Source: Candidatus Iainarchaeum sp.
GTDB taxonomy: Archaea; Iainarchaeota; Iainarchaeia; Iainarchaeales; CSSED10-239
Assembly: GCA_028700905.1 (NCBI GenBank)
Contig: JAQVRT010000040.1
Location: forward strand, 1 to 6,116
Direction of reading: 5' to 3'
DNA: 6,116 nucleotides
Positions 1-6,116 of this stretch are shown here, piece after piece; positions within the stretch are counted from its first letter, which is position 1, and every line of letters begins with the position of its first letter. A program made the position numbers and the translations under genes. The notes beneath the pieces were generated by a model, which saw nothing but the letters and a program-made list of their open reading frames with translations, did no database searches and was not told where the DNA came from.

Positions 1-678
1 CACATAAAAGTAGTCCTTAATAAAGCAAAAGAACATCATGGAACCTTTAGAACACAAGATTTAGAGTGGATAGGTGGAGAAAATAGAAAAGAAACAATTA
101 TCCAGGAAAACGGATGTTATTTAAAAACAGATGTTGAGAAAGTATTTTATTCAACAAGACTTGCAACAGAAAGAAAAAGAATAGCCTCTTTAGTCTTAGA
201 AAATGAAACAATAGGAGTTTTCTTTGCAGGAGTTGGTCCTTTTTCAATAGCAATTGCAAAACTTGCAAAACCAAAAGAAATTATTTCCATTGAACTTAAC
301 CCTATTGGTGTTAAATATATGGAAGAAAATATTTTAAAAAATCAAATGGAAAAAATAATAACACCAATAGAAGGAGATGTTAAAGAAATATCTAAAAGAT
401 ATCCAAACTATTTTGATAGAATACCAATGCCACTTCCAAAATCTGCAGAAAATTTTTTAGATGATGCAATTTTTTCAATAAAAGATCAAGGAATAATACA
501 CATTTATAATTTTGTATCTAAAAATGAACCATTTAAAGAAATTGAAAAAATAATAAAAGAAAAAGAAAAAAAGAATAATTGTAAGATAGAAATAATATTT
601 AAGAAAGTTATTAGAAGTTTTTCTCAAACCACTGTACAGATTGTAATGGATTTAAAAATATCTAAAGATCTTTCTTAA
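1..678 (+). CDS. trm5: tRNA (guanine37-N1)-methyltransferase Trm5 / Taw2 family (Met-10+ class I SAM methyltransferase), 5'-truncated by the window edge
   Basis: Frame 1 is open from base 1 to the TAA at 676-678, so the ORF-track ATG at 319 is internal. Translating 1-318 gives ...KVFYSTRLATERKRI..., then IGVFFAGVGPFSIAIAK (SAM motif I). ISIELNP, GDVKEI and DRIPMPLPKSAENFL (NLP-type catalytic loop) follow, in the canonical Trm5/TYW2 order. Trm5 and Taw2 cannot be separated by eye. Confidence 0.85.
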   Translation, partial: HIKVVLNKAKEHHGTFRTQDLEWIGGENRKETIIQENGCYLKTDVEKVFYSTRLATERKRIASLVLENETIGVFFAGVGPFSIAIAKLAKPKEIISIELNPIGVKYMEENILKNQMEKIITPIEGDVKEISKRYPNYFDRIPMPLPKSAENFLDDAIFSIKDQGIIHIYNFVSKNEPFKEIEKIIKEKEKKNNCKIEIIFKKVIRSFSQTTVQIVMDLKISKDLS

Positions 679-3031
679 GTTTAGGTTTCTTTTTAGAAGT
701 TTTAGATTTAGAAACTTCTTTTGGTTTTACTTCTTCTTTTTTCTTTGAAGGTTTAATTTTTGAAACTATTTTTTTAACACTTTTAATAGAATCACTTTTT
801 TCATTTTCAGAAAGAAGTTTCTTTCTTTTCTCAAGTTCAATTATTTGTTTATCAATAATTTTCTTTTCAAACTCAACTGAAGAAGTATCATAAACCATTT
901 TAGATTTAGAATCCTTTAAAACATCTTTATTTTTTATTCTTTCAAGCTCTAAAAGATATTTATCTCTCATTTCTTTATAAGTGAAAGGACTTATTTTTCC
1001 TTCAATTAATTTTTCATCTAAATAACCTATTTGTTTAATTATTCCTTCCTTTGAATGATGTTTTTTAAATCTTTCAACTTCAAAGACAATTGTTAAAACC
1101 ATTAAAAACAAAGCTGCAACAAATAAATAAAGATAAACATCTTTCTTCTCTTTTGAATAAATATAGATGTTTTGAGAAGAAGTTTCTTTTTCTTTACTTA
1201 CATTTTCATCTTCATCAGAAACAATAATTACAGAGCCTTGATTTGAAGAACTAATATCAATGACTAAAGTTTCAAGATCTGTATTTAAATAATAATCAAG
1301 AACTATTATTTCTGTTTCATAAAGATAATGTGCAAAATTAAGTATAGAGTTTGCAACATTTAATTGAGATTTTGCTTTTTCTTCATCTTTATTTTTATAG
1401 AAATCATGAGCATTTTTATAATAAATACCATGATCTAAGAAAGTTTTAGACCAAACATAATTTTCATTATTCATTGCACTTTGATTTCTTAAATCTTTAG
1501 TTAATTGATCATATTTAATATTAAAATCATTTAATGTAAAATTATTTTTACTGTCTTCTTGTGTTTTTATAACAGCTAAAGCAGTTGCTGAATCATAAAG
1601 TGAAGTTACATACCATCCTCTTTGATAATTAATCTTTGCAGCATTAAGTCTTCTTTTTAAATCTTCAGTATCTGCTATGTTTGGAGCAACTAAAATTAAT
1701 TGATTTTCAACAGATATAATGCTTTCTTGTGCTTTTTCTTTAAAAAAGTTAGATTCTACAAACTTTAAATCATTATTTGTTGTAATTGATGCATCTAAAA
1801 AATCATTTGCAATTTCTGTCCATGCTAAAGCATAAGCATATTCTTGTATTTTTGAAAAATTATTTATAGTTTGCTTTTCTTTTAAAGATTCAACTTTATC
1901 TCTTGCCCAAGTAATTCTTTGTCTTCCACCAACACACCATTCTAAATATTCAATTGAACAGTTGTTAGATCTATTTTCTGTTAAAGTTATTTTTTCATCA
2001 AGTTCAGAAACTCTAAGATCAAAAATAATTGAAGAATCTGCTAAAATTGATGGGTTTGTAATAATTTCTTCAACAGAGATTATATTAATATAAGCTAAAA
2101 AAGAATTATTTGCTGCTGAATAAAAATAATTATTTTCATAAAACTTTTTTGAATTTTCAACAAGTTCTTCAGAATAAGTAACTGTTGATAAAAGTGTATC
2201 TAGAACATCTAAATCTTTTATGTTAGAGGAAGATATTTTAGAATTAATTGAAGATAATTTTTCTTCAGTATTAAGAATATATTCTTCAGTTATTTTTTTT
2301 AAAGGCTCGACTGCTTTAGAATATTCAATTTTATTATAAACAAAATCATCTACTTTTTCTTCTTGAATAGAATTTACATCAATTGAAGAAACATCTCTAA
2401 AAGCATAATCTAGAACATCATCAATAGTTGATACTTCAATAATCTTTAAACCCCATTCATTATAAGCATGCTCAATTAAATCAACTTGTTTAATTTCATC
2501 ATCTTCATTAATCACTTGAGATCTATTTCCTTGAGGTATGAAAAATAAATCAATACCTATTTCAGAAGCTTTTTTTGCTTTATAATATATTCCACCAACA
2601 TCTCCAATATATCCGTCAATTGAAATTGAACCAGTCATACTTACATTTTCAGGAACAGGAGTATCTTTAAACATTGAAATTATTAAAAGAGCCATTGCAC
2701 CACCTGCAGATGGACCATCTATAGTGTGTGCATTTGAAGTAATATCAACTGTAAAATCATACTCTTGCTTAATATCTTCTTTTATAACTGAATCTGCAAC
2801 TGCAATTGCATTTTTAAAAGATTCTTGTGTTGAAGAACCTACTATTGATTCATCTATTGAAGAATATATTTTTCCAGTACCAGGTATAATTTTTACATTT
2901 AACTGTGCATCTTTTGCACTTGTTTCACCAGATACTGCAAAAATCTTCATATTAGCATCAGAAACTAATGCGAAAAGATTAGGCATTAAAAGTATTAAAA
3001 ATAATAATATTGCAATTGATTTAATTTTCAT
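662..3031 (-). CDS. Membrane-anchored, ATPase-less Lon-like S16 serine protease with a large extracytoplasmic domain and a basic cytoplasmic tail
   Basis: Complete 789-aa ORF (ATG 3029-3031, TAG 662-664). N-terminal hydrophobic signal/anchor is MKIKSIAILLFLILLMPNLFALVSDA. Lon proteolytic-domain motifs are TIDGPSAGGAMALL (catalytic Ser108) and DVGGIYYKAKKASEIGIDLFFIPQGN (Lys151, 43 residues after the Ser, the spacing I recall for E. coli Lon). No Walker A/B motif occurs anywhere. A second TM helix spans aa 632-651 and is followed by ERFKKHHSK (positive-inside). Confidence 0.85.
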   Translation of the reverse strand: MKIKSIAILLFLILLMPNLFALVSDANMKIFAVSGETSAKDAQLNVKIIPGTGKIYSSIDESIVGSSTQESFKNAIAVADSVIKEDIKQEYDFTVDITSNAHTIDGPSAGGAMALLIISMFKDTPVPENVSMTGSISIDGYIGDVGGIYYKAKKASEIGIDLFFIPQGNRSQVINEDDEIKQVDLIEHAYNEWGLKIIEVSTIDDVLDYAFRDVSSIDVNSIQEEKVDDFVYNKIEYSKAVEPLKKITEEYILNTEEKLSSINSKISSSNIKDLDVLDTLLSTVTYSEELVENSKKFYENNYFYSAANNSFLAYINIISVEEIITNPSILADSSIIFDLRVSELDEKITLTENRSNNCSIEYLEWCVGGRQRITWARDKVESLKEKQTINNFSKIQEYAYALAWTEIANDFLDASITTNNDLKFVESNFFKEKAQESIISVENQLILVAPNIADTEDLKRRLNAAKINYQRGWYVTSLYDSATALAVIKTQEDSKNNFTLNDFNIKYDQLTKDLRNQSAMNNENYVWSKTFLDHGIYYKNAHDFYKNKDEEKAKSQLNVANSILNFAHYLYETEIIVLDYYLNTDLETLVIDISSSNQGSVIIVSDEDENVSKEKETSSQNIYIYSKEKKDVYLYLFVAALFLMVLTIVFEVERFKKHHSKEGIIKQIGYLDEKLIEGKISPFTYKEMRDKYLLELERIKNKDVLKDSKSKMVYDTSSVEFEKKIIDKQIIELEKRKKLLSENEKSDSIKSVKKIVSKIKPSKKKEEVKPKEVSKSKTSKKKPKLKKDL
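695..722 (+). terminator. Possible trm5 terminator: 8-bp hairpin followed by a T-run, embedded in the convergent gene
   Basis: agaagttt (695-702) pairs perfectly with aaacttct (712-719) across a 9-nt loop, followed by T-run 719-722. A further oligo-T (tttcttttt, 686-694) lies 8 nt after the trm5 stop. The T-richness is partly forced by Lys (AAA/AAG) codons of the opposite-strand gene, so this may be incidental. Confidence 0.25.
935..1036 (-). other. SHOCT-like short helical motif in the cytoplasmic tail
   Basis: aa 666-699, KQIGYLDEKLIEGKISPFTYKEMRDKYLLELERI, resembles the SHOCT pattern (L..L...G.I+..eY...+..LL). The rest of the tail (aa 700-789) is Lys/Glu/Ser-rich and ends KKKPKLKKDL. This is motif-level resemblance only. 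Confidence 0.35.
1079..1138 (-). other. Transmembrane helix (aa 632-651, VYLYLFVAALFLMVLTIVFE) separating the ectodomain from the cytoplasmic tail
   Basis: About 20 consecutive hydrophobic residues. Acidic/polar sequence lies before them and the basic cluster RFKKHHSK after them. Confidence 0.75.
2396..2950 (-). other. Lon_C-type (S16) proteolytic domain with an intact Ser-Lys dyad
   Basis: Covers aa ~28-212 of the 789-aa ORF. The Ser108 codon is tct (revcomp of 2708-2710) inside GPSAG. The Lys151 codon is aaa (revcomp of 2579-2581) inside GGIYYKAKKA. Both were verified against the nucleotide sequence. Confidence 0.8.
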
Positions 3032-3095: not shown

Positions 3096-3560
3096 TTACT
3101 TTTTCTTGTTTTTGAAAAGAAGATTAAATTTTTTAGTTGTAGAAAGAATATTTTTCCTTCCTTTTTTTTCAATTGCAATTAAATCTAGTTCTTTAAGTAT
3201 TTTTAAGTCTTCAAAAGGTCTTTTCTTACTTATTTTTGATTGTTCAACAGGAGCATTTAAAGAAATAAAAGCTAAAGTTTTAAGTTCAGATTTTGAAAGA
3301 GTTGTTCCTGTTGCAAAAATATTAAAAGAATGGAATTCTGGTTTTACAACAATCTCTAATTTTTTATTATCTTTAATAATTGAAAGAGAAGTTTTTCTTT
3401 TATTATAATCATTAATTAAATCATCTATCTGAATATCAATTATTTTTTTATCAATATTTGGAAATGAAGAATAAATTTTTGAAATTAAAGTTGATTTTGG
3501 AGATAGAAACAAAATAGCTTCTATTGCTTGTTTTAAATAATCACTACTTGTTTGGTCCAT
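3096..3560 (-). CDS. scpB: ScpB-like segregation and condensation protein B (short form, two winged-helix domains)
   Basis: Complete 154-aa ORF. The N-terminus, LKQAIEAILFLSPKSTLISKI, matches the ScpB signature (EAlLFas.ePls). The second half, LSKSELKTLAFISLNAPVEQSKISKKR...LKELDLIAIEKKGRKNILSTTKKFNLLF, matches the second ScpB wHTH (Ls.aalEtLaiIAY.QPit..eI..iR ... L.e.glI...gr....y.tT..Fl..F). Confidence 0.7.
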   Translation of the reverse strand: MDQTSSDYLKQAIEAILFLSPKSTLISKIYSSFPNIDKKIIDIQIDDLINDYNKRKTSLSIIKDNKKLEIVVKPEFHSFNIFATGTTLSKSELKTLAFISLNAPVEQSKISKKRPFEDLKILKELDLIAIEKKGRKNILSTTKKFNLLFKNKKK

Positions 3561-3579: not shown

Positions 3580-4353
3580 TTATTCATTTATTGCAACTAA
3601 TGTTTCATTTCTTTCAGGCATAGTATAAGTAAAAGTTTCTTGATTAGAAATTCTACTTGAAGTACTTCTCTCTACCCAATAAATATTATTATTAGATTCT
3701 ACTGATGAAATCATTTTTATAGAAACAATAACATTTTCTCCTGCTTGATATTCTCCATCTCCAGATAAAGTAGCTGAAACACCAGTTTCATTTTCTAAAG
3801 TTAAAGTATAAGTTTCTGGCTCAGAAGATTCTGATTGAAAAGTTGCAGTTACATTTCTTGCTTGAGTCATGGAAACTGTACAAGTAGATCGAGATCCTGA
3901 ACAAGCACCTGACCATTCTATAAAATCATAACCTGGTATTCGATTTATAATTAAAGTAACTGAAGTTCCTGAAGAATAATTTTGAGAACAATCAGCTCCA
4001 CAATTAATACCTGGAGGATTTGAAGTTACAGTTCCATTTCCAGAAACATTAACAGTTAATGTATAATTTTCAGGATCTGGTTCATCTGGTTCATCTGGTT
4101 CATCTGGATTAGGATCATCTCCTCCAGGATTAGGATTAATATTATCTATTTCTTCAACTTGAGAAGAATCATTTAAATCTTTAATAAAACCATCAACTGT
4201 TGAATCTATTCCTTCATTAATTTTATCTGATTGATTTACTTTCTCATTTGAAAAATTAATAAAGGTTGTAGCTAGAACAATTGTTCCTAAGACTAAAATA
4301 CCAACAATAATTACCATCTCTAAAGATACTTGAGCTTTTTTACTTTGAATCAT
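3580..4353 (-). CDS. Archaeal type IV pilin-like protein (class III signal peptide) fused to InlB B-repeat adhesin-type domains
   Basis: Complete 257-aa ORF. It starts MIQSKKA|QVSLEMVIIVGILVLGTIVLATTF: a short basic leader, Ala at -1, Gln +1, Ser +3, Glu +5, then a hydrophobic helix (DUF361/QxSxE-type prepilin signal). A Pro/Asp/Glu linker follows at aa 72-96. Next is a divergent InlB B-repeat (aa 97-172, GINCGADCS...[26 protein letters not shown]). Last is a classic Listeria-Bacteroides-type repeat (aa 181-255, YTLTL...FTYTMPERNETLVA). Confidence 0.8.
   Translation of the reverse strand: MIQSKKAQVSLEMVIIVGILVLGTIVLATTFINFSNEKVNQSDKINEGIDSTVDGFIKDLNDSSQVEEIDNINPNPGGDDPNPDEPDEPDEPDPENYTLTVNVSGNGTVTSNPPGINCGADCSQNYSSGTSVTLIINRIPGYDFIEWSGACSGSRSTCTVSMTQARNVTATFQSESSEPETYTLTLENETGVSATLSGDGEYQAGENVIVSIKMISSVESNNNIYWVERSTSSRISNQETFTYTMPERNETLVAINE
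3838..4057 (-). repeat. B-repeat cassette copy in the pilin-like gene, homologous at DNA level to 5811-6030
   Basis: Gap-free alignment at a constant offset of 1973 nt. A hand count gives 184/220 identical positions. Perfect blocks are 3838-3886 = 5811-5859 (49 nt) and 3951-3983 = 5924-5956 (33 nt). Confidence 0.9.
4075..4107 (-). repeat. Perfect 9-nt tandem repeat (atctggttc x3.7) encoding (PDE)n in the pilin-like linker
   Basis: Units lie at 4075-4083, 4084-4092 and 4093-4101, with a partial unit at 4102-4107. The minus-strand translation is PDEPDEPDEPD. Confidence 0.95.
4261..4353 (-). other. Class III (prepilin-type) signal peptide plus hydrophobic N-terminal helix; predicted cleavage between Ala7 and Gln8
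   Basis: KKA|QVSLE has a basic residue at -2, a small residue at -1 and Glu at +5, then about 22 hydrophobic residues. This is the pattern recognised by archaeal PibD/FlaK/EppA-type peptidases. Confidence 0.7.
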
Positions 4354-4376
4354 ATTTTAACCACATTTTTATAAAA

Positions 4377-6116
4377 TTATTCTAATCCACCATCAATAAT
4401 AGTCCAACCATAGTCATTAATTAATTTATTTCTAGAATCTACAGCAGAATTATCATAATTTACTGCTGTTGCTCCTAATGTTACATTAGTTTTTAAATTA
4501 TCTAAACTACTCCATTTAATTAAAAGTTTAGTATAATTTACAGTAGATAAAGCATAATCAAACATATGATCCATATCAATTACATTTGAAACATTCCAAG
4601 AACTAATATCTTGATCAAAACAAATATCACTAACACTAAAAAAACACATAAACATCCTATTCATATTTGTAACATTTGAAACATCCCACATACTTATATC
4701 TTGATTAAATGAATAATTATTATAAAACATAGAAGACATATCAGTTACATTTGAAACATCCCAATTATTCAATGGTTGATTAAATCTAGTACATCTAAAC
4801 ATTGAAGACATATTAGTTACATTTGAAACATCCCAATTATTTATAGAAGTATTAGTCCATGAAAATACACCATTATTTGGAGGATTACTTACACTACAAT
4901 TTTGATAACCACTAAAAGTACCTGCTAAATTTGTAACTCCATTTAGATCAGGAACATCAGTTGCAGTTACAACTAAATTTGTAGCTCCAGAGAAATAATA
5001 TCCATTATTTCCGAATTTTAAATTACCCCATTGACTAATTTCTGTTAATTTTAATTTATCTCCAGAATTATTAAACCTAAAACCTTCAATAAAACCAGTT
5101 ATTACAACAGTGTAAACTCCTGGTGCTGAATATGTATGAGTTTTATCAGGATCACTATAACTTGTAACCTCAGATGTAGTTCCATCTCCCCAATAAACTT
5201 TAAAATTATAATTATTACTATAATAAGAAGCAGAATCTAAAGGTAATGTAATTTGATTTGCACTGGAAGATCCAGTACTAATTTTTGTAGTATCCCATTT
5301 AGATATAAATGCATCTGAAGTAGGTATAAAATTTGCAGTTAAATTCACATTACTTGAAGGCATTGTATAACTAAATGAAGGATCTGTACTAACTACAGTA
5401 CCATTTTGATCAATCCAATTTACATAAGAAAATTCAGCAGTAGAAGTTATAGATATTTTTGCAACATCTCCAGGATTATAATTTCCTGCACCATTTAAAC
5501 TAATATGTACTGAATCTGGATTTTCAATTAAATTTAAATTATAAGCAACAGGCAAACTAAAAGTTGCAGTTACATTTTTAACTTCAGTCATAGAAACAGA
5601 ACAACTAATTTGAGATCCAGAACAAGCACCTGACCATCCTTCAAAAACATATCCTGAAACTGGAGTTGCATTTAATTGAACAGATTGTTGATCAGGAAAA
5701 GTTGCAGAACAGTTTGTTTGTGATTCTAAACAATTAATTCCAGAAGGATAAGTTTCAACAGTTCCTCCAATTGTTTTAGTTAAATTTAAAGTATAACTAT
5801 TTGGAAGATTAAAAGTTGCAGTTACATTTCTTGCTTGAGTCATGGAAACTGTACAAGTAAGATTAGTTCCAGAACAAGCACCTGACCATCCACCAAAACT
5901 ATGACCTGTAACAGGATTTGCAGTTAAAGTAACTGAAGTTCCTGAAGAATAATTTTCAGAACAATCAGAACCACAATTAATACCTAAAGGACTTGAAGTC
6001 ACAGTTCCATTTCCCGCACCACTTAAAGATACATTTAAAGTATAAGTTGATGGAGCTGTTGATGAAAAATTTGCAATTAAAGAAGTATTTGAATTTAAAG
6101 TAAAAGTATATGGATT
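4377..6116 (-). CDS. Large secreted/surface protein, 5'-truncated by the window: InlB B-repeats plus a C-terminal DUF285/BspA-like 26-residue-repeat domain
   Basis: The reading frame stays open from 6002 to the window edge at 6116 ([49 protein letters not shown]...). The ORF-track start at 6002 is therefore an internal GTG in the middle of a repeat domain. Domains: divergent B-repeat 1 (5811-6044), divergent B-repeat 2 (5559-5795), classic B-repeat (5328-5543), then FISKWDT...[10 protein letters not shown]...[15 protein letters not shown]. Four W[DN]VSNV(T/I)(N/D)MxxMF...FNQDIS units follow, the signature of the bacterial surface protein 26-residue repeat (DUF285). Stop codon at 4377-4379. 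Confidence 0.9.
4551..4841 (-). repeat. In-frame tandem coding repeats (24-30 aa period) of the DUF285/BspA-like domain
   Basis: acatttgaaacat[ct]cca (minus strand W-D/N-V-S-N-V) recurs at 4581, 4671, 4746 and 4818, giving spacings of 90, 75 and 72 nt. A 27-nt perfect repeat links 4743-4769 and 4815-4841. Confidence 0.9.
5811..6030 (-). repeat. B-repeat cassette copy in the large surface-protein gene, homologous at DNA level to 3838-4057
   Basis: Same alignment as above. A third, more diverged copy of the same domain lies at 5559-5795 and shares the terminal aatgtaactgcaactttt on the minus strand. Confidence 0.9.

Follow-up and report, generated by a model that had tools for sequence, protein, structure and literature searches.

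We describe here a gene that is fairly likely to encode an archaeal type IV pilin with a modular build and of the DUF361/Epd kind, that is, of the kind processed by the peptidase EppA, probably a minor or tip subunit that presents InlB-type B-repeats. The gene lies on the minus strand of a 6,116-bp sequence of Candidatus Iainarchaeum sp. (contig JAQVRT010000040.1), which corresponds to an entire contig, has a GC content of 26% and will be called the window. A preliminary description of this DNA, made from the letters alone, had proposed a pilin-like N-terminus joined by a linker to B-repeat domains of adhesin type. [quoted passage not shown] The features of the gene, with residues given in amino acids (aa), are listed below.

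3580..4353, minus strand: target gene, 257-aa modular pilin-like protein (open reading frame list, ATG start; stop codon at 3580-3582)
4333..4353, minus strand: predicted class III signal peptide MIQSKKA, aa 1-7 (FlaFind-type rule and conservation; predicted cleavage between Ala7 and Gln8)
4252..4332, minus strand: hydrophobic N-terminal helix segment (alpha1-N), aa 8-34, starting with QVSLE and carrying a DUF361-type QxSxExxx[L/I] motif
4135..4251, minus strand: polar helix continuation and spacer, aa 35-73, with the family-conserved motif VDxF(I/V)xDL at aa 53-60
4069..4134, minus strand: flexible linker rich in Pro, Asp and Glu, aa 74-95, PNPGGDDPNPDEPDEPDEPDPE, containing (EPD)n and predicted as coil by AlphaFold2 (AF2)
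3829..4068, minus strand: B-repeat 1, a four-Cys divergent InlB B-repeat (Flg_new_2, Pfam PF18998), aa 96-175
3583..3810, minus strand: B-repeat 2, a degenerate Flg_new_2-like domain devoid of Cys, aa 182-257 (sub-threshold hidden Markov model match and homology)

The open reading frame (ORF) is intact and occupies the coordinates given in the preliminary description, to which we add the strand. Its product is 100% identical to the NCBI entry 'hypothetical protein PHX47_03630 [Candidatus ainarchaeum sp.]'. Orthologues were found on contigs of 177-368 kb and comprise five full-length proteins at 69-88% identity, plus one (P0006) in which the first 12 residues are missing. Compared as DNA, the whole window shares 95.1% identity with the complete genome of Candidatus Forterrea multitransposorum (CP045477.1, locus L016), a Diapherotrite with a genome of 0.84 Mb, a minimal metabolism and a predicted host-dependent lifestyle, in which many large extracellular proteins and localised homologous recombination have been reported (PMC5905446). 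This close relative agrees with the earlier suggestion of a small-genome archaeon, and the source organism is a tiny groundwater DPANN archaeon that probably depends on a host.

The N-terminus of the protein reads MIQSKKA followed by QVSLEMVIIVGILVLGTIVLATTFINF, which spans aa 8-34. The leader is short and basic and ends in Ala. We applied a FlaFind-type rule ([KRDE][GA][ALIFQMVED][ILMVTAS]x3 plus a 22-aa hydrophobic stretch), in six frames, to every ORF that begins with Met and reaches 50 aa or more, both in the window and in three 20-kb orthologous loci. Only the target and its two paralogues were flagged, the target with predicted cleavage after Ala7 and a mean Kyte-Doolittle hydropathy of 2.18 across the 22 aa. 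The stretch QVSLEMVII has Gln at +1, Ser at +3 and Glu at +5, with Ile in place of the Leu at +9 of the motif QXSXEXXXL. In a 34-sequence alignment of the N-terminal module, Lys(-2), Gln(+1) and Glu(+5) are invariant, Ser(+3) is conserved in at least 90% of the sequences, and position -1 is occupied by either Gly or Ala. The class III motif first read from the letters is thus borne out both by the rule and by its conservation in relatives. EppA specifically processes the proteins that carry the DUF361 motif with Gln at +1 (PMC2910488), and a +1 Gln with a +5 Glu is also the signature of the pilins of Methanococcus maripaludis (PMC3875500). The target N-terminus fits this DUF361/EppA signature, and no bacterial prepilin motif of the N_methyl type (IPR012902) was found in the target with Pfam and NCBIfam at E <= 0.1.

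With aa 1-95 as the query, an exhaustive phmmer search of 1.84 billion representative proteins gave 38 matches at E <= 1e-3, with lengths of 71-1,017 aa. About a dozen of these relatives have only 71-86 aa and consist of the signal, the helix and the VDxF(I/V)xDL motif, after which they end, while others carry one small beta domain (125-167 aa). Further cargo includes Big_7-like repeats, Flg_new_2/Flg_new repeats, chitobiase-C/Fn3_assoc domains, RCC1 propellers, DUF285, Fib_succ_major and Lcl_C. The VDxF(I/V)xDL motif is conserved across the 34 aligned relatives, including the proteins of 71-86 aa that end shortly after it, and relatives as short as these leave no room for a globular head in the carrier. 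The Pfam family Class_IIIsignal was matched by 27 of 36 module relatives at E <= 0.01 (best E = 4e-7). In the first AF2 model of the target, one unbroken helix runs from aa 12 to 62 and is followed by coil, with a predicted local distance difference test (pLDDT) score below 50.

The polar spacer and the Pro/Asp/Glu linker of the preliminary description are both present, the linker occupying aa 74-95. Its (EPD)n run corresponds in the DNA to a perfect tandem repeat at 4075-4107, for which Tandem Repeats Finder gave a period of 9 bp, 3.7 copies and a 100% match, and the number of copies differs between orthologues. The first domain (aa 97-175) matches Flg_new_2 at 57.4 bits, for a cut-off of 23.6, over profile positions 1-72 of 73. 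Each of its four Cys (118, 122, 151 and 158) is conserved in at least 90% of the sequences of a 43-sequence alignment, and an AF2 run with these 43 sequences gave seven beta strands at pLDDT 93-98; the four-Cys divergent InlB B-repeat announced for this region was therefore recovered. The second domain had been taken for a classic Listeria-Bacteroides repeat in aa 182-255, a label that did not hold, since it gave no match to PF09479 (Flg_new) even at E <= 10 and none to TIGR02543. The sole TIGR02543 match in the protein (17.2 bits, for a cut-off of 20.95) lies at aa 140-175, inside repeat 1. Searched alone against Flg_new_2, the second domain scored 20.1-20.5 bits, below the cut-off of 23.6, and those of two orthologues gave no match. 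It is homologous, with a BLASTP E-value of 4e-8, to a repeat without Cys in the upstream gene, a repeat that itself passes Flg_new_2 at 41.3 bits, and we therefore regard it as a degenerate Flg_new_2 repeat. In this way, of the B-repeats expected over aa 97-255, the one in aa 97-175 is confidently detected, whereas aa 182-255 remain below threshold. In the first AF2 model, the second domain is all-beta, with pLDDT 62-85. The target also has 10 N-glycosylation sequons, for 5.2 expected (p about 0.016).

The two repeats had been called Ig-like, a label that we could not establish. AF2 with six orthologues gave a mean pLDDT of 52.8, and a Foldseek search of this model against the PDB produced no match at E <= 1e-3. 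With the model built from 43 sequences, Foldseek produced only generic matches to tandem beta domains, with template modelling (TM) scores of at most 0.26 and root-mean-square deviations of 9-25 Å, and a profile search of PDB sequences returned 0 matches. A passage of PMC9723798, citing Ebbes 2011, describes B-repeats as beta-grasp-like. Of the proposed N-terminal pilin helix followed by beaded domains, AF2 modelled repeat 1 confidently, as seven beta strands, and the N-terminal helix (aa 12-62) only at low pLDDT.

The four-Cys B-repeat is also 45-59% identical to repeats in apparently bacterial proteins (P0007-P0013, P0025 and P0038), among them proteins named from Saccharibacteria and Nomurabacteria of the candidate phyla radiation (CPR). 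This similarity would be compatible with a passage of the B-repeat between domains of life among co-occurring groundwater organisms.

If the target is indeed a pilin of this kind, the preprotein would be inserted into the membrane and an A24-family class III signal peptidase would remove MIQSKKA, exposing Gln8. A T2SSE-type ATPase and two T2SSF-type platform proteins would then draw the helix of aa 8-34 out of the membrane, so that it forms the core of a thin, helix-only filament similar to those of Epd or Flp pilins, and the amphipathic continuation (to about aa 62, VDxFIxDL) would form the outer layer of the filament. The acidic (EPD)n tether would hold the two B-repeat domains off the fibre, in place of the usual globular pilin head, and the repeats may offer a binding surface for a ligand on a partner cell or on a substrate. 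Because this cargo is bulky, a low-abundance or tip subunit is likelier than a bulk subunit, and the earlier assignment as a tip or minor pilin is probably right.

The target belongs to a cassette of three related genes inserted between scpA and scpB, which encode SMC partners. In all target orthologue loci, the order is scpA, gene 1, gene 2, gene 3, scpB, a membrane protein with only a Lon_C domain and, on the opposite strand, trm5; gene 3 is the target. Gene 1 encodes 127 aa, with the pilin N-terminus fused straight to one B-repeat, and in the source metagenome-assembled genome (MAG) it corresponds to PHX47_03460, located on another contig. Gene 2 encodes 730-766 aa, the pilin N-terminus being followed by several B-repeats and then by a large module at the C-terminus. 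All three proteins start with KKA/QVSLEM, where the slash marks the predicted cleavage site, followed by a hydrophobic helix. Only the C-terminal 579 aa of gene 2 are present in the window, as the assembly broke inside this gene; in relatives, the full protein begins with the KKAQVSLE pilin module. The Pfam scores of gene 2 are 115-184 bits for DUF285 and 103-106 bits for Flg_new_2. Downstream of the target, scpB starts 19 nucleotides (nt) past the stop codon, and the gene order is conserved in all relatives. The elements that flank the target in the window are the following.

4377..6116, minus strand: upstream paralogue (gene 2), C-terminal 579 aa, with three Flg_new_2 repeats, a PKD-like domain and DUF285/PARCEL repeats
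4354..4376, minus strand: A/T-rich intergenic spacer TTTTATAAAAATGTGGTTAAAAT, 23 nt, between gene 2 and the target, one boundary of the module-swap region
3096..3560, minus strand: scpB, 154 aa, downstream boundary of the cassette (Pfam SMC_ScpB, 65 bits)

The site itself is shared well beyond the orthologues. We surveyed the family members whose genomic context could be retrieved, and all of them lie at scpA/scpB. In ten loci (L001, L005, L006, L010, L012 and L014-L018), one to three pilin-like genes encoding 73-932 aa split scpA from scpB, with gaps of about 10-120 nt. The DNA of distant relatives matches the window at 75-77% up to the start of scpB and shows no match beyond it. Individual sites are as follows.

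L010: 73-aa pilin gene between scpA and scpB
L012: 76-aa and 162-aa pilin genes between scpA and scpB
L015: 264-aa pilin gene directly after scpA; the contig ends in the next gene
L014: 909-aa pilin gene with RCC1 cargo, between scpA and scpB
L017 (Candidatus Iainarchaeum archaeon): 577-, 915- and 157-aa pilin genes between scpA and scpB
L018: scpA and scpB separated by two pilin-like genes
L007 and L011: a 71-79-aa pilin, together with a pilin-like adhesin of 509-763 aa, just upstream of scpA, which here adjoins scpB

In most of these genomes, a surface-protein cassette is embedded in a gene pair devoted to chromosome segregation. A limited literature search retrieved no description of a DUF361-type pilin with Flg_new_2 repeats, nor of a hypervariable pilin site at scpA-scpB.

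Within the cassette, the handle and the cargo evolve in very different ways. Among orthologues, the N-terminal 78 aa of the target are 94% identical, with dN/dS values of 0.09-0.18, whereas its two repeats are only 64-66% identical, with dN/dS values of 0.5-1.6. The N-terminal module is therefore under purifying selection, and the repeats are near-neutral or positively selected. Pilins and surface adhesins classically evolve in this manner, their heads diversifying on a stem that is under constraint. Repeat 1 (3829-4068) and the first complete four-Cys repeat of gene 2 (5807-6044) are 75% identical in amino acids and 87% identical in nucleotides and share an exact word of 49 nt, which points to a recent exchange between the neighbouring genes and suggests gene conversion between the target and the adjacent gene 2. 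This similarity probably also accounts for the break of the assembly inside the repeat-rich gene 2.

Larger replacements were found as well. Compared with the locus L001, the window has flanks that are 97.5% and 92.5% identical, but the segment 4370-5802, which encodes the PKD-like and DUF285/PARCEL portion of gene 2, is missing from both L001 and L006, where a module containing Fib_succ_major is found instead. The breakpoints of this clean replacement lie at approximately 5803, in a B-repeat, and at 4369, at the stop codon of gene 2, with flanks 92-97% identical in both loci. Taken together, these data show three sources of cargo diversity, namely near-neutral or positive selection, intragenic exchange of repeats and the replacement of modules.

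Two other features of gene 2 were noticed. The PARCEL/DUF285 units of the protein, 24 aa long and of the form 'WDVSNVTxMxxMF', are reflected in the DNA by a 72-bp tandem repeat at 4672-4841 (2.3 copies, 81% match). Several proteins of the gene 2 type are annotated with a Lys-rich extension of 19-45 aa before MNKxKKAQVSLE (L001 7686-7760, L005 7779-7853, P0074, P0075 and P0077-P0079), which recurs in divergent relatives and would represent a class III leader of unusual length or else an ORF annotated too long in A-rich DNA. We also considered gene 2 as PamR, of the CPR pilus, and rejected it, since the match reached 26.6 bits, for a cut-off of 300, and covered the PKD/RbmA-like stretch only.

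As the preliminary description had already stated, the window encodes no assembly ATPase, platform protein or prepilin peptidase, based on the ORF list and on Pfam. A complete type IV filament (TFF) operon with comparable pilins was found only elsewhere, and our searches placed none in a genome that carries the cassette. In a scan of GTDB genomes with the N-terminal module, L020 (archaeon SO_2017_LW1_34) was found to carry a pilin starting with MNKKAQVSLEF in an operon that, as verified with Pfam, also encodes an ATPase of the T2SSE family (164 bits), a pair of platform proteins of the T2SSF family, several class III pilins and a prepilin peptidase with Peptidase_A24 + Arc_PepC. Operons of this type recur in L021 and in L093, the only one of the three that comes from a MAG named by NCBI as 'Candidatus Diapherotrites archaeon'. 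Each has T2SSE, two T2SSF, three or four pilins and Peptidase_A24/Arc_PepC, at the positions below.

L020, 2967-10342: TFF operon
L021, 5163-12598: TFF operon
L093, 5233-12537: TFF operon

The pilins of these operons have 46-60 aa. Each operon also encodes two or three class III proteins of larger size, and TctA follows 0.4-1.4 kb further downstream. Those of L093 (KRAQASIE, NRAQGALEY, DKAQISVEY, KKAQTSIEF and NKAQTSFEL) share with the target the Ala at -1, the Gln at +1 and the Glu at +5. To our knowledge, the helix-only pilins of the three operons, with about 40-50 aa in mature form, are among the shortest pilin candidates. The presence of two platform genes and a dedicated peptidase matches the Epd-like 'system 1', found mainly in methanogens, DPANN archaea and deep-branching euryarchaea, whose primary pilin has no globular domain (bioRxiv 10.64898/2026.04.22.720090). 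Reference genomes of Diapherotrites have type IV pili (PMC8561730), and 'a secretion-related ATPase' is mentioned for the complete genome of Candidatus Forterrea (PMC5905446).

Several observations nevertheless weigh against a polymerizing pilin. No ATPase, platform or peptidase gene was found within 10 kb of the cassette in 13 distinct loci. Searches for an A24 peptidase by sequence, by profile, by an AT-codon motif scan of Joint Genome Institute (JGI) metagenomes and by a cluster look-up of eight low-GC peptidases retrieved nothing on Forterrea-lineage contigs (839,632, 671,102, 368,344, 343,193, 232,630 and 177,659 bp), the retrieval of candidates being word-limited. A Class_IIIsignal/DUF361 match, which the preliminary description had proposed to look for, stayed below threshold in the target itself, as PF04021 matched aa 5-22 at 17.5 bits with the whole protein and at 19.2 bits with an N-terminal fragment, for a curated cut-off of 23.7, although the motif rule and the family conservation are both in place. 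No NCBIfam pilin model scored above its cut-off for the target or for its helix-only relatives, the nearest match being the sub-threshold TIGR04205 ('class III signal ... PIP-CTERM associated'). The helix region was of low confidence in both AF2 models (pLDDT 32-46). Finally, a hidden Markov model (HMM) of the target module scored 50-95 bits with the cassette pilins and 17-48 bits (best E 1.6e-13) with operon pilins, dozens of short pilins located beside A24 peptidases on low-GC metagenome contigs. The matches with operon pilins count in favour of the pilin reading; in view of the difference in scores, the cassette module could be a specialised, non-polymerizing offshoot.

Some of these observations would fit a surface anchor similar to the bindosome proteins. 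Its signal would be cleaved, but its helix would remain at the membrane, within it or just above it, by itself or in a short pseudopilus-like stub, and would hold the B-repeats on their acidic stalk at the cell surface, as has been proposed for the class III sugar-binding proteins of Sulfolobus. We consider this possible, if not especially likely. Cargo of up to 909-932 aa at the site would be awkward in a filament body, the machinery genes are not near the cassette, the cassette module forms a tight HMM tier apart from the operon pilins, and archaeal class III signals are known on substrate-binding proteins that are not pilins (bioRxiv 10.64898/2026.04.22.720090; PMC2910488). On the other hand, the same-site relatives of 71-86 aa are made of signal and helix and have nothing to anchor, which is sensible for filament subunits, and the VDxFxxDL extension of the helix is strongly conserved under purifying selection, beyond the needs of a passive stalk. 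Glu(+5), a residue that has a role in subunit packing in bacterial pili, is invariant in the 34 relatives. That the protein is an ordinary uncleaved signal-anchor or a secreted protein of the Sec type, with a fortuitous class III resemblance, seems highly improbable to us. The Class_IIIsignal score below the gathering threshold, the generic nature of a basic stretch followed by a hydrophobic segment and the fruitless peptidase searches on Forterrea-lineage contigs would all be expected of such a protein. However, Lys(-2), Gly/Ala(-1), Gln(+1), Ser(+3) and Glu(+5) are conserved in relatives that are otherwise unalignable, and a charged residue such as this Glu, at the fifth position of the hydrophobic segment, would not be kept in a generic anchor. 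The Class_IIIsignal matches of most relatives and the occurrence of the same signature on pilins adjoining A24 peptidases argue in the same direction.

The position of the target in the filament raises another question. The target, perhaps with the 127-aa product of gene 1, could be the major subunit of a decorated fibre, in which all subunits would bear tethered B-repeats, resulting in a bottle-brush adhesin pilus. The Forterrea-type cassette has no helix-only gene, its smallest product being the 127-aa protein with the helix fused to one B-repeat, and a long flexible linker could let the cargo splay out from a helix-only core; a location in the filament body is regarded as possible for modular pilins if the linker is flexible enough (Raynaud et al., PMC8179133). 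Even so, we judge such a fibre quite improbable, as the TFF operons of L093 and of two archaeal assemblies encode several pilins of 46-60 aa that are better candidates, and as the three cassette genes differ in cargo and vary highly between strains, which is typical of accessory or tip subunits. A load of about 160 aa of cargo per helix of roughly 55 aa would also be without known precedent. A minor or tip pilin thus remains the explanation that we favour.

The architecture of the target recalls that of bacterial modular pilins, such as PilB (with a von Willebrand factor A domain) and PilC (with a lectin domain) of Streptococcus sanguinis and CofB of enterotoxigenic Escherichia coli (Raynaud et al. 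2021, PMC8179133). In that survey, 264 architectures were described, with IPR011871 and IPR026906 among the 15 most frequent, and a tip location was proposed (PMC8179133). As in those proteins, the signal and carrier of the target are joined via a linker to a C-terminal domain that is not specific to pili and that, in the bacterial proteins, mediates adhesion. The differences reside in the signal, which is of the archaeal DUF361 type (Gln at +1 and, in the family, Ala or Gly at -1) instead of an N-methylation motif, in a carrier that seems to be helix only, without the globular alpha/beta pilin module, in the long and acidic linker, in the Flg_new_2 cargo and in the location of the genes at a housekeeping site instead of a pil locus. 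IPR011871 and IPR026906, which we take to be the Fib_succ_major and BspA-type leucine-rich repeat entries, would echo the Fib_succ_major and DUF285 cargo found at the scpA/scpB site. Since it has no N-methylation motif and its carrier is seemingly a bare helix, the target falls outside the 'modular pilins' in the operational sense of PMC8179133.

Closer counterparts are found in M. maripaludis, whose Epd/DUF361 pilin-like proteins include EpdE/MMP1685, EpdA-C and MMP0600/0601/0709 (PMC3875500, PMC2910488), with a major pilin of 74 aa and pilin loci separate from the ATPase and platform genes (PMC3875500). We compared these proteins by signature, size and locus descriptions, and by sequence within the signal only. 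The short leader, Gln(+1), Glu(+5), the N-glycosylation sequons and the location of pilin genes away from the ATPase and platform genes are common to both, and so are the size classes of 67-76 aa (helix only), 130-156 aa and 200-299 aa. M. maripaludis also has a dedicated A24 peptidase and two platform genes, as in L020, L021 and L093. Unlike the Epd proteins, the target has Ala instead of Gly at -1 (both occur in its family), and the VDxFxxDL extension and the acidic linker are specific to its lineage, with adhesin-type repeats as identifiable cargo. By its signal type, size classes and scattered loci, the target belongs with the DUF361/Epd pilin-like proteins of methanogens, even though its score stays below the Pfam gathering threshold.

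Two other groups of archaeal surface proteins are relevant here. The Sulfolobus 'bindosome' proteins resemble the target in being extracellular domains borne on a class III signal and a hydrophobic helix (PMC2910488; bioRxiv 10.64898/2026.04.22.720090), and a dependence on TFF-type machinery encoded elsewhere in the genome, as in the bindosome, would be a further common feature. Their cargo differs, being an ATP-binding cassette (ABC) transporter binding protein encoded beside its transporter, whereas B-repeats encoded beside scpA/scpB are found here; moreover, Sulfolobus pilins have no Glu(+5) (PMC3875500), which is present in the target. The Flg_new 'adhesin-like proteins' of Methanomassiliicoccales and Methanimicrococcus blatticola, described as attachment factors (PMC9723798), are likewise archaeal surface proteins made of repeats of the Listeria-Bacteroides/InlB type. 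In that case, however, the repeats belong to PF09479 (Flg_new) and the hosts of the genes are gut archaea, in contrast to the PF18998 (Flg_new_2) repeats of a groundwater DPANN archaeon, and the one anchor reported for them, a PGF-CTERM signal on a single Flg_new protein (PMC9723798), contrasts with the pilin module of the target, those proteins being no pilin fusions.

The means by which DPANN archaea recognise and attach to their partners are largely unknown, and pili and large surface proteins are the usual suspects, with few testable candidates. The locus described here provides such a candidate, concrete and open to testing, for the way in which a minimal DPANN symbiont attaches to its partner, with a conserved handle and a fast-evolving cargo swapped between strains that are 97.5% identical across flanking genes, and its fixed genomic position at scpA/scpB makes it easy to locate. 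It also extends to archaea the principle of the modular pilin established in bacteria, with a carrier that is seemingly an alpha-helix alone. The architecture itself is an expected product of evolutionary tinkering, with no new mechanism or principle, and its biology is proposed here from sequence comparisons. If the cargo determines partner specificity, the cassette would serve as a host-range marker in metagenomes and as a target for binding assays.

A broader proposal, which we put forward as speculation and regard as rather unlikely, is that the scpA-scpB site is a dedicated, recombination-driven 'adhesin display' locus of DPANN archaea of the Forterrea/Iainarchaeum type. The helix-only handle would be a universal adaptor for host-recognition modules exchanged between strains, which may comprise the B-repeats, DUF285/PARCEL, Fib_succ_major, RCC1 propellers and chitobiase-type domains. 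In this case, the partner cell that the pilus of the symbiont is able to seize would depend on the cassette, and its embedding between the kleisin-partner genes scpA and scpB would couple adhesin expression to the chromosome-segregation operon.

The remaining sequences of the window are less directly related to the target, and an Rfam scan of the whole window found no RNA families. A 789-aa protein encoded at 662-3031 on the minus strand follows scpB in every relative whose sequence reaches past scpB. It has an N-terminal Sec-like signal and a Lon C-terminal (S16) domain (63 bits), without the AAA+ module; it is also hydrophobic around aa 640-660 and has a tail rich in Lys. Judging from these features, it may be an extracytoplasmic Lon-like protease. 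At the other end of the window, positions 1-678 of the plus strand encode trm5, a Trm5b-like tRNA methyltransferase whose reading frame is open from base 1. An ORF of 119 aa at 319-678 begins at an internal Met of this gene. We considered the possibility of a fragment or pseudogene and rejected it, since the frame is 99% identical to residues 126-351 of the orthologue and is cut by the end of the contig.

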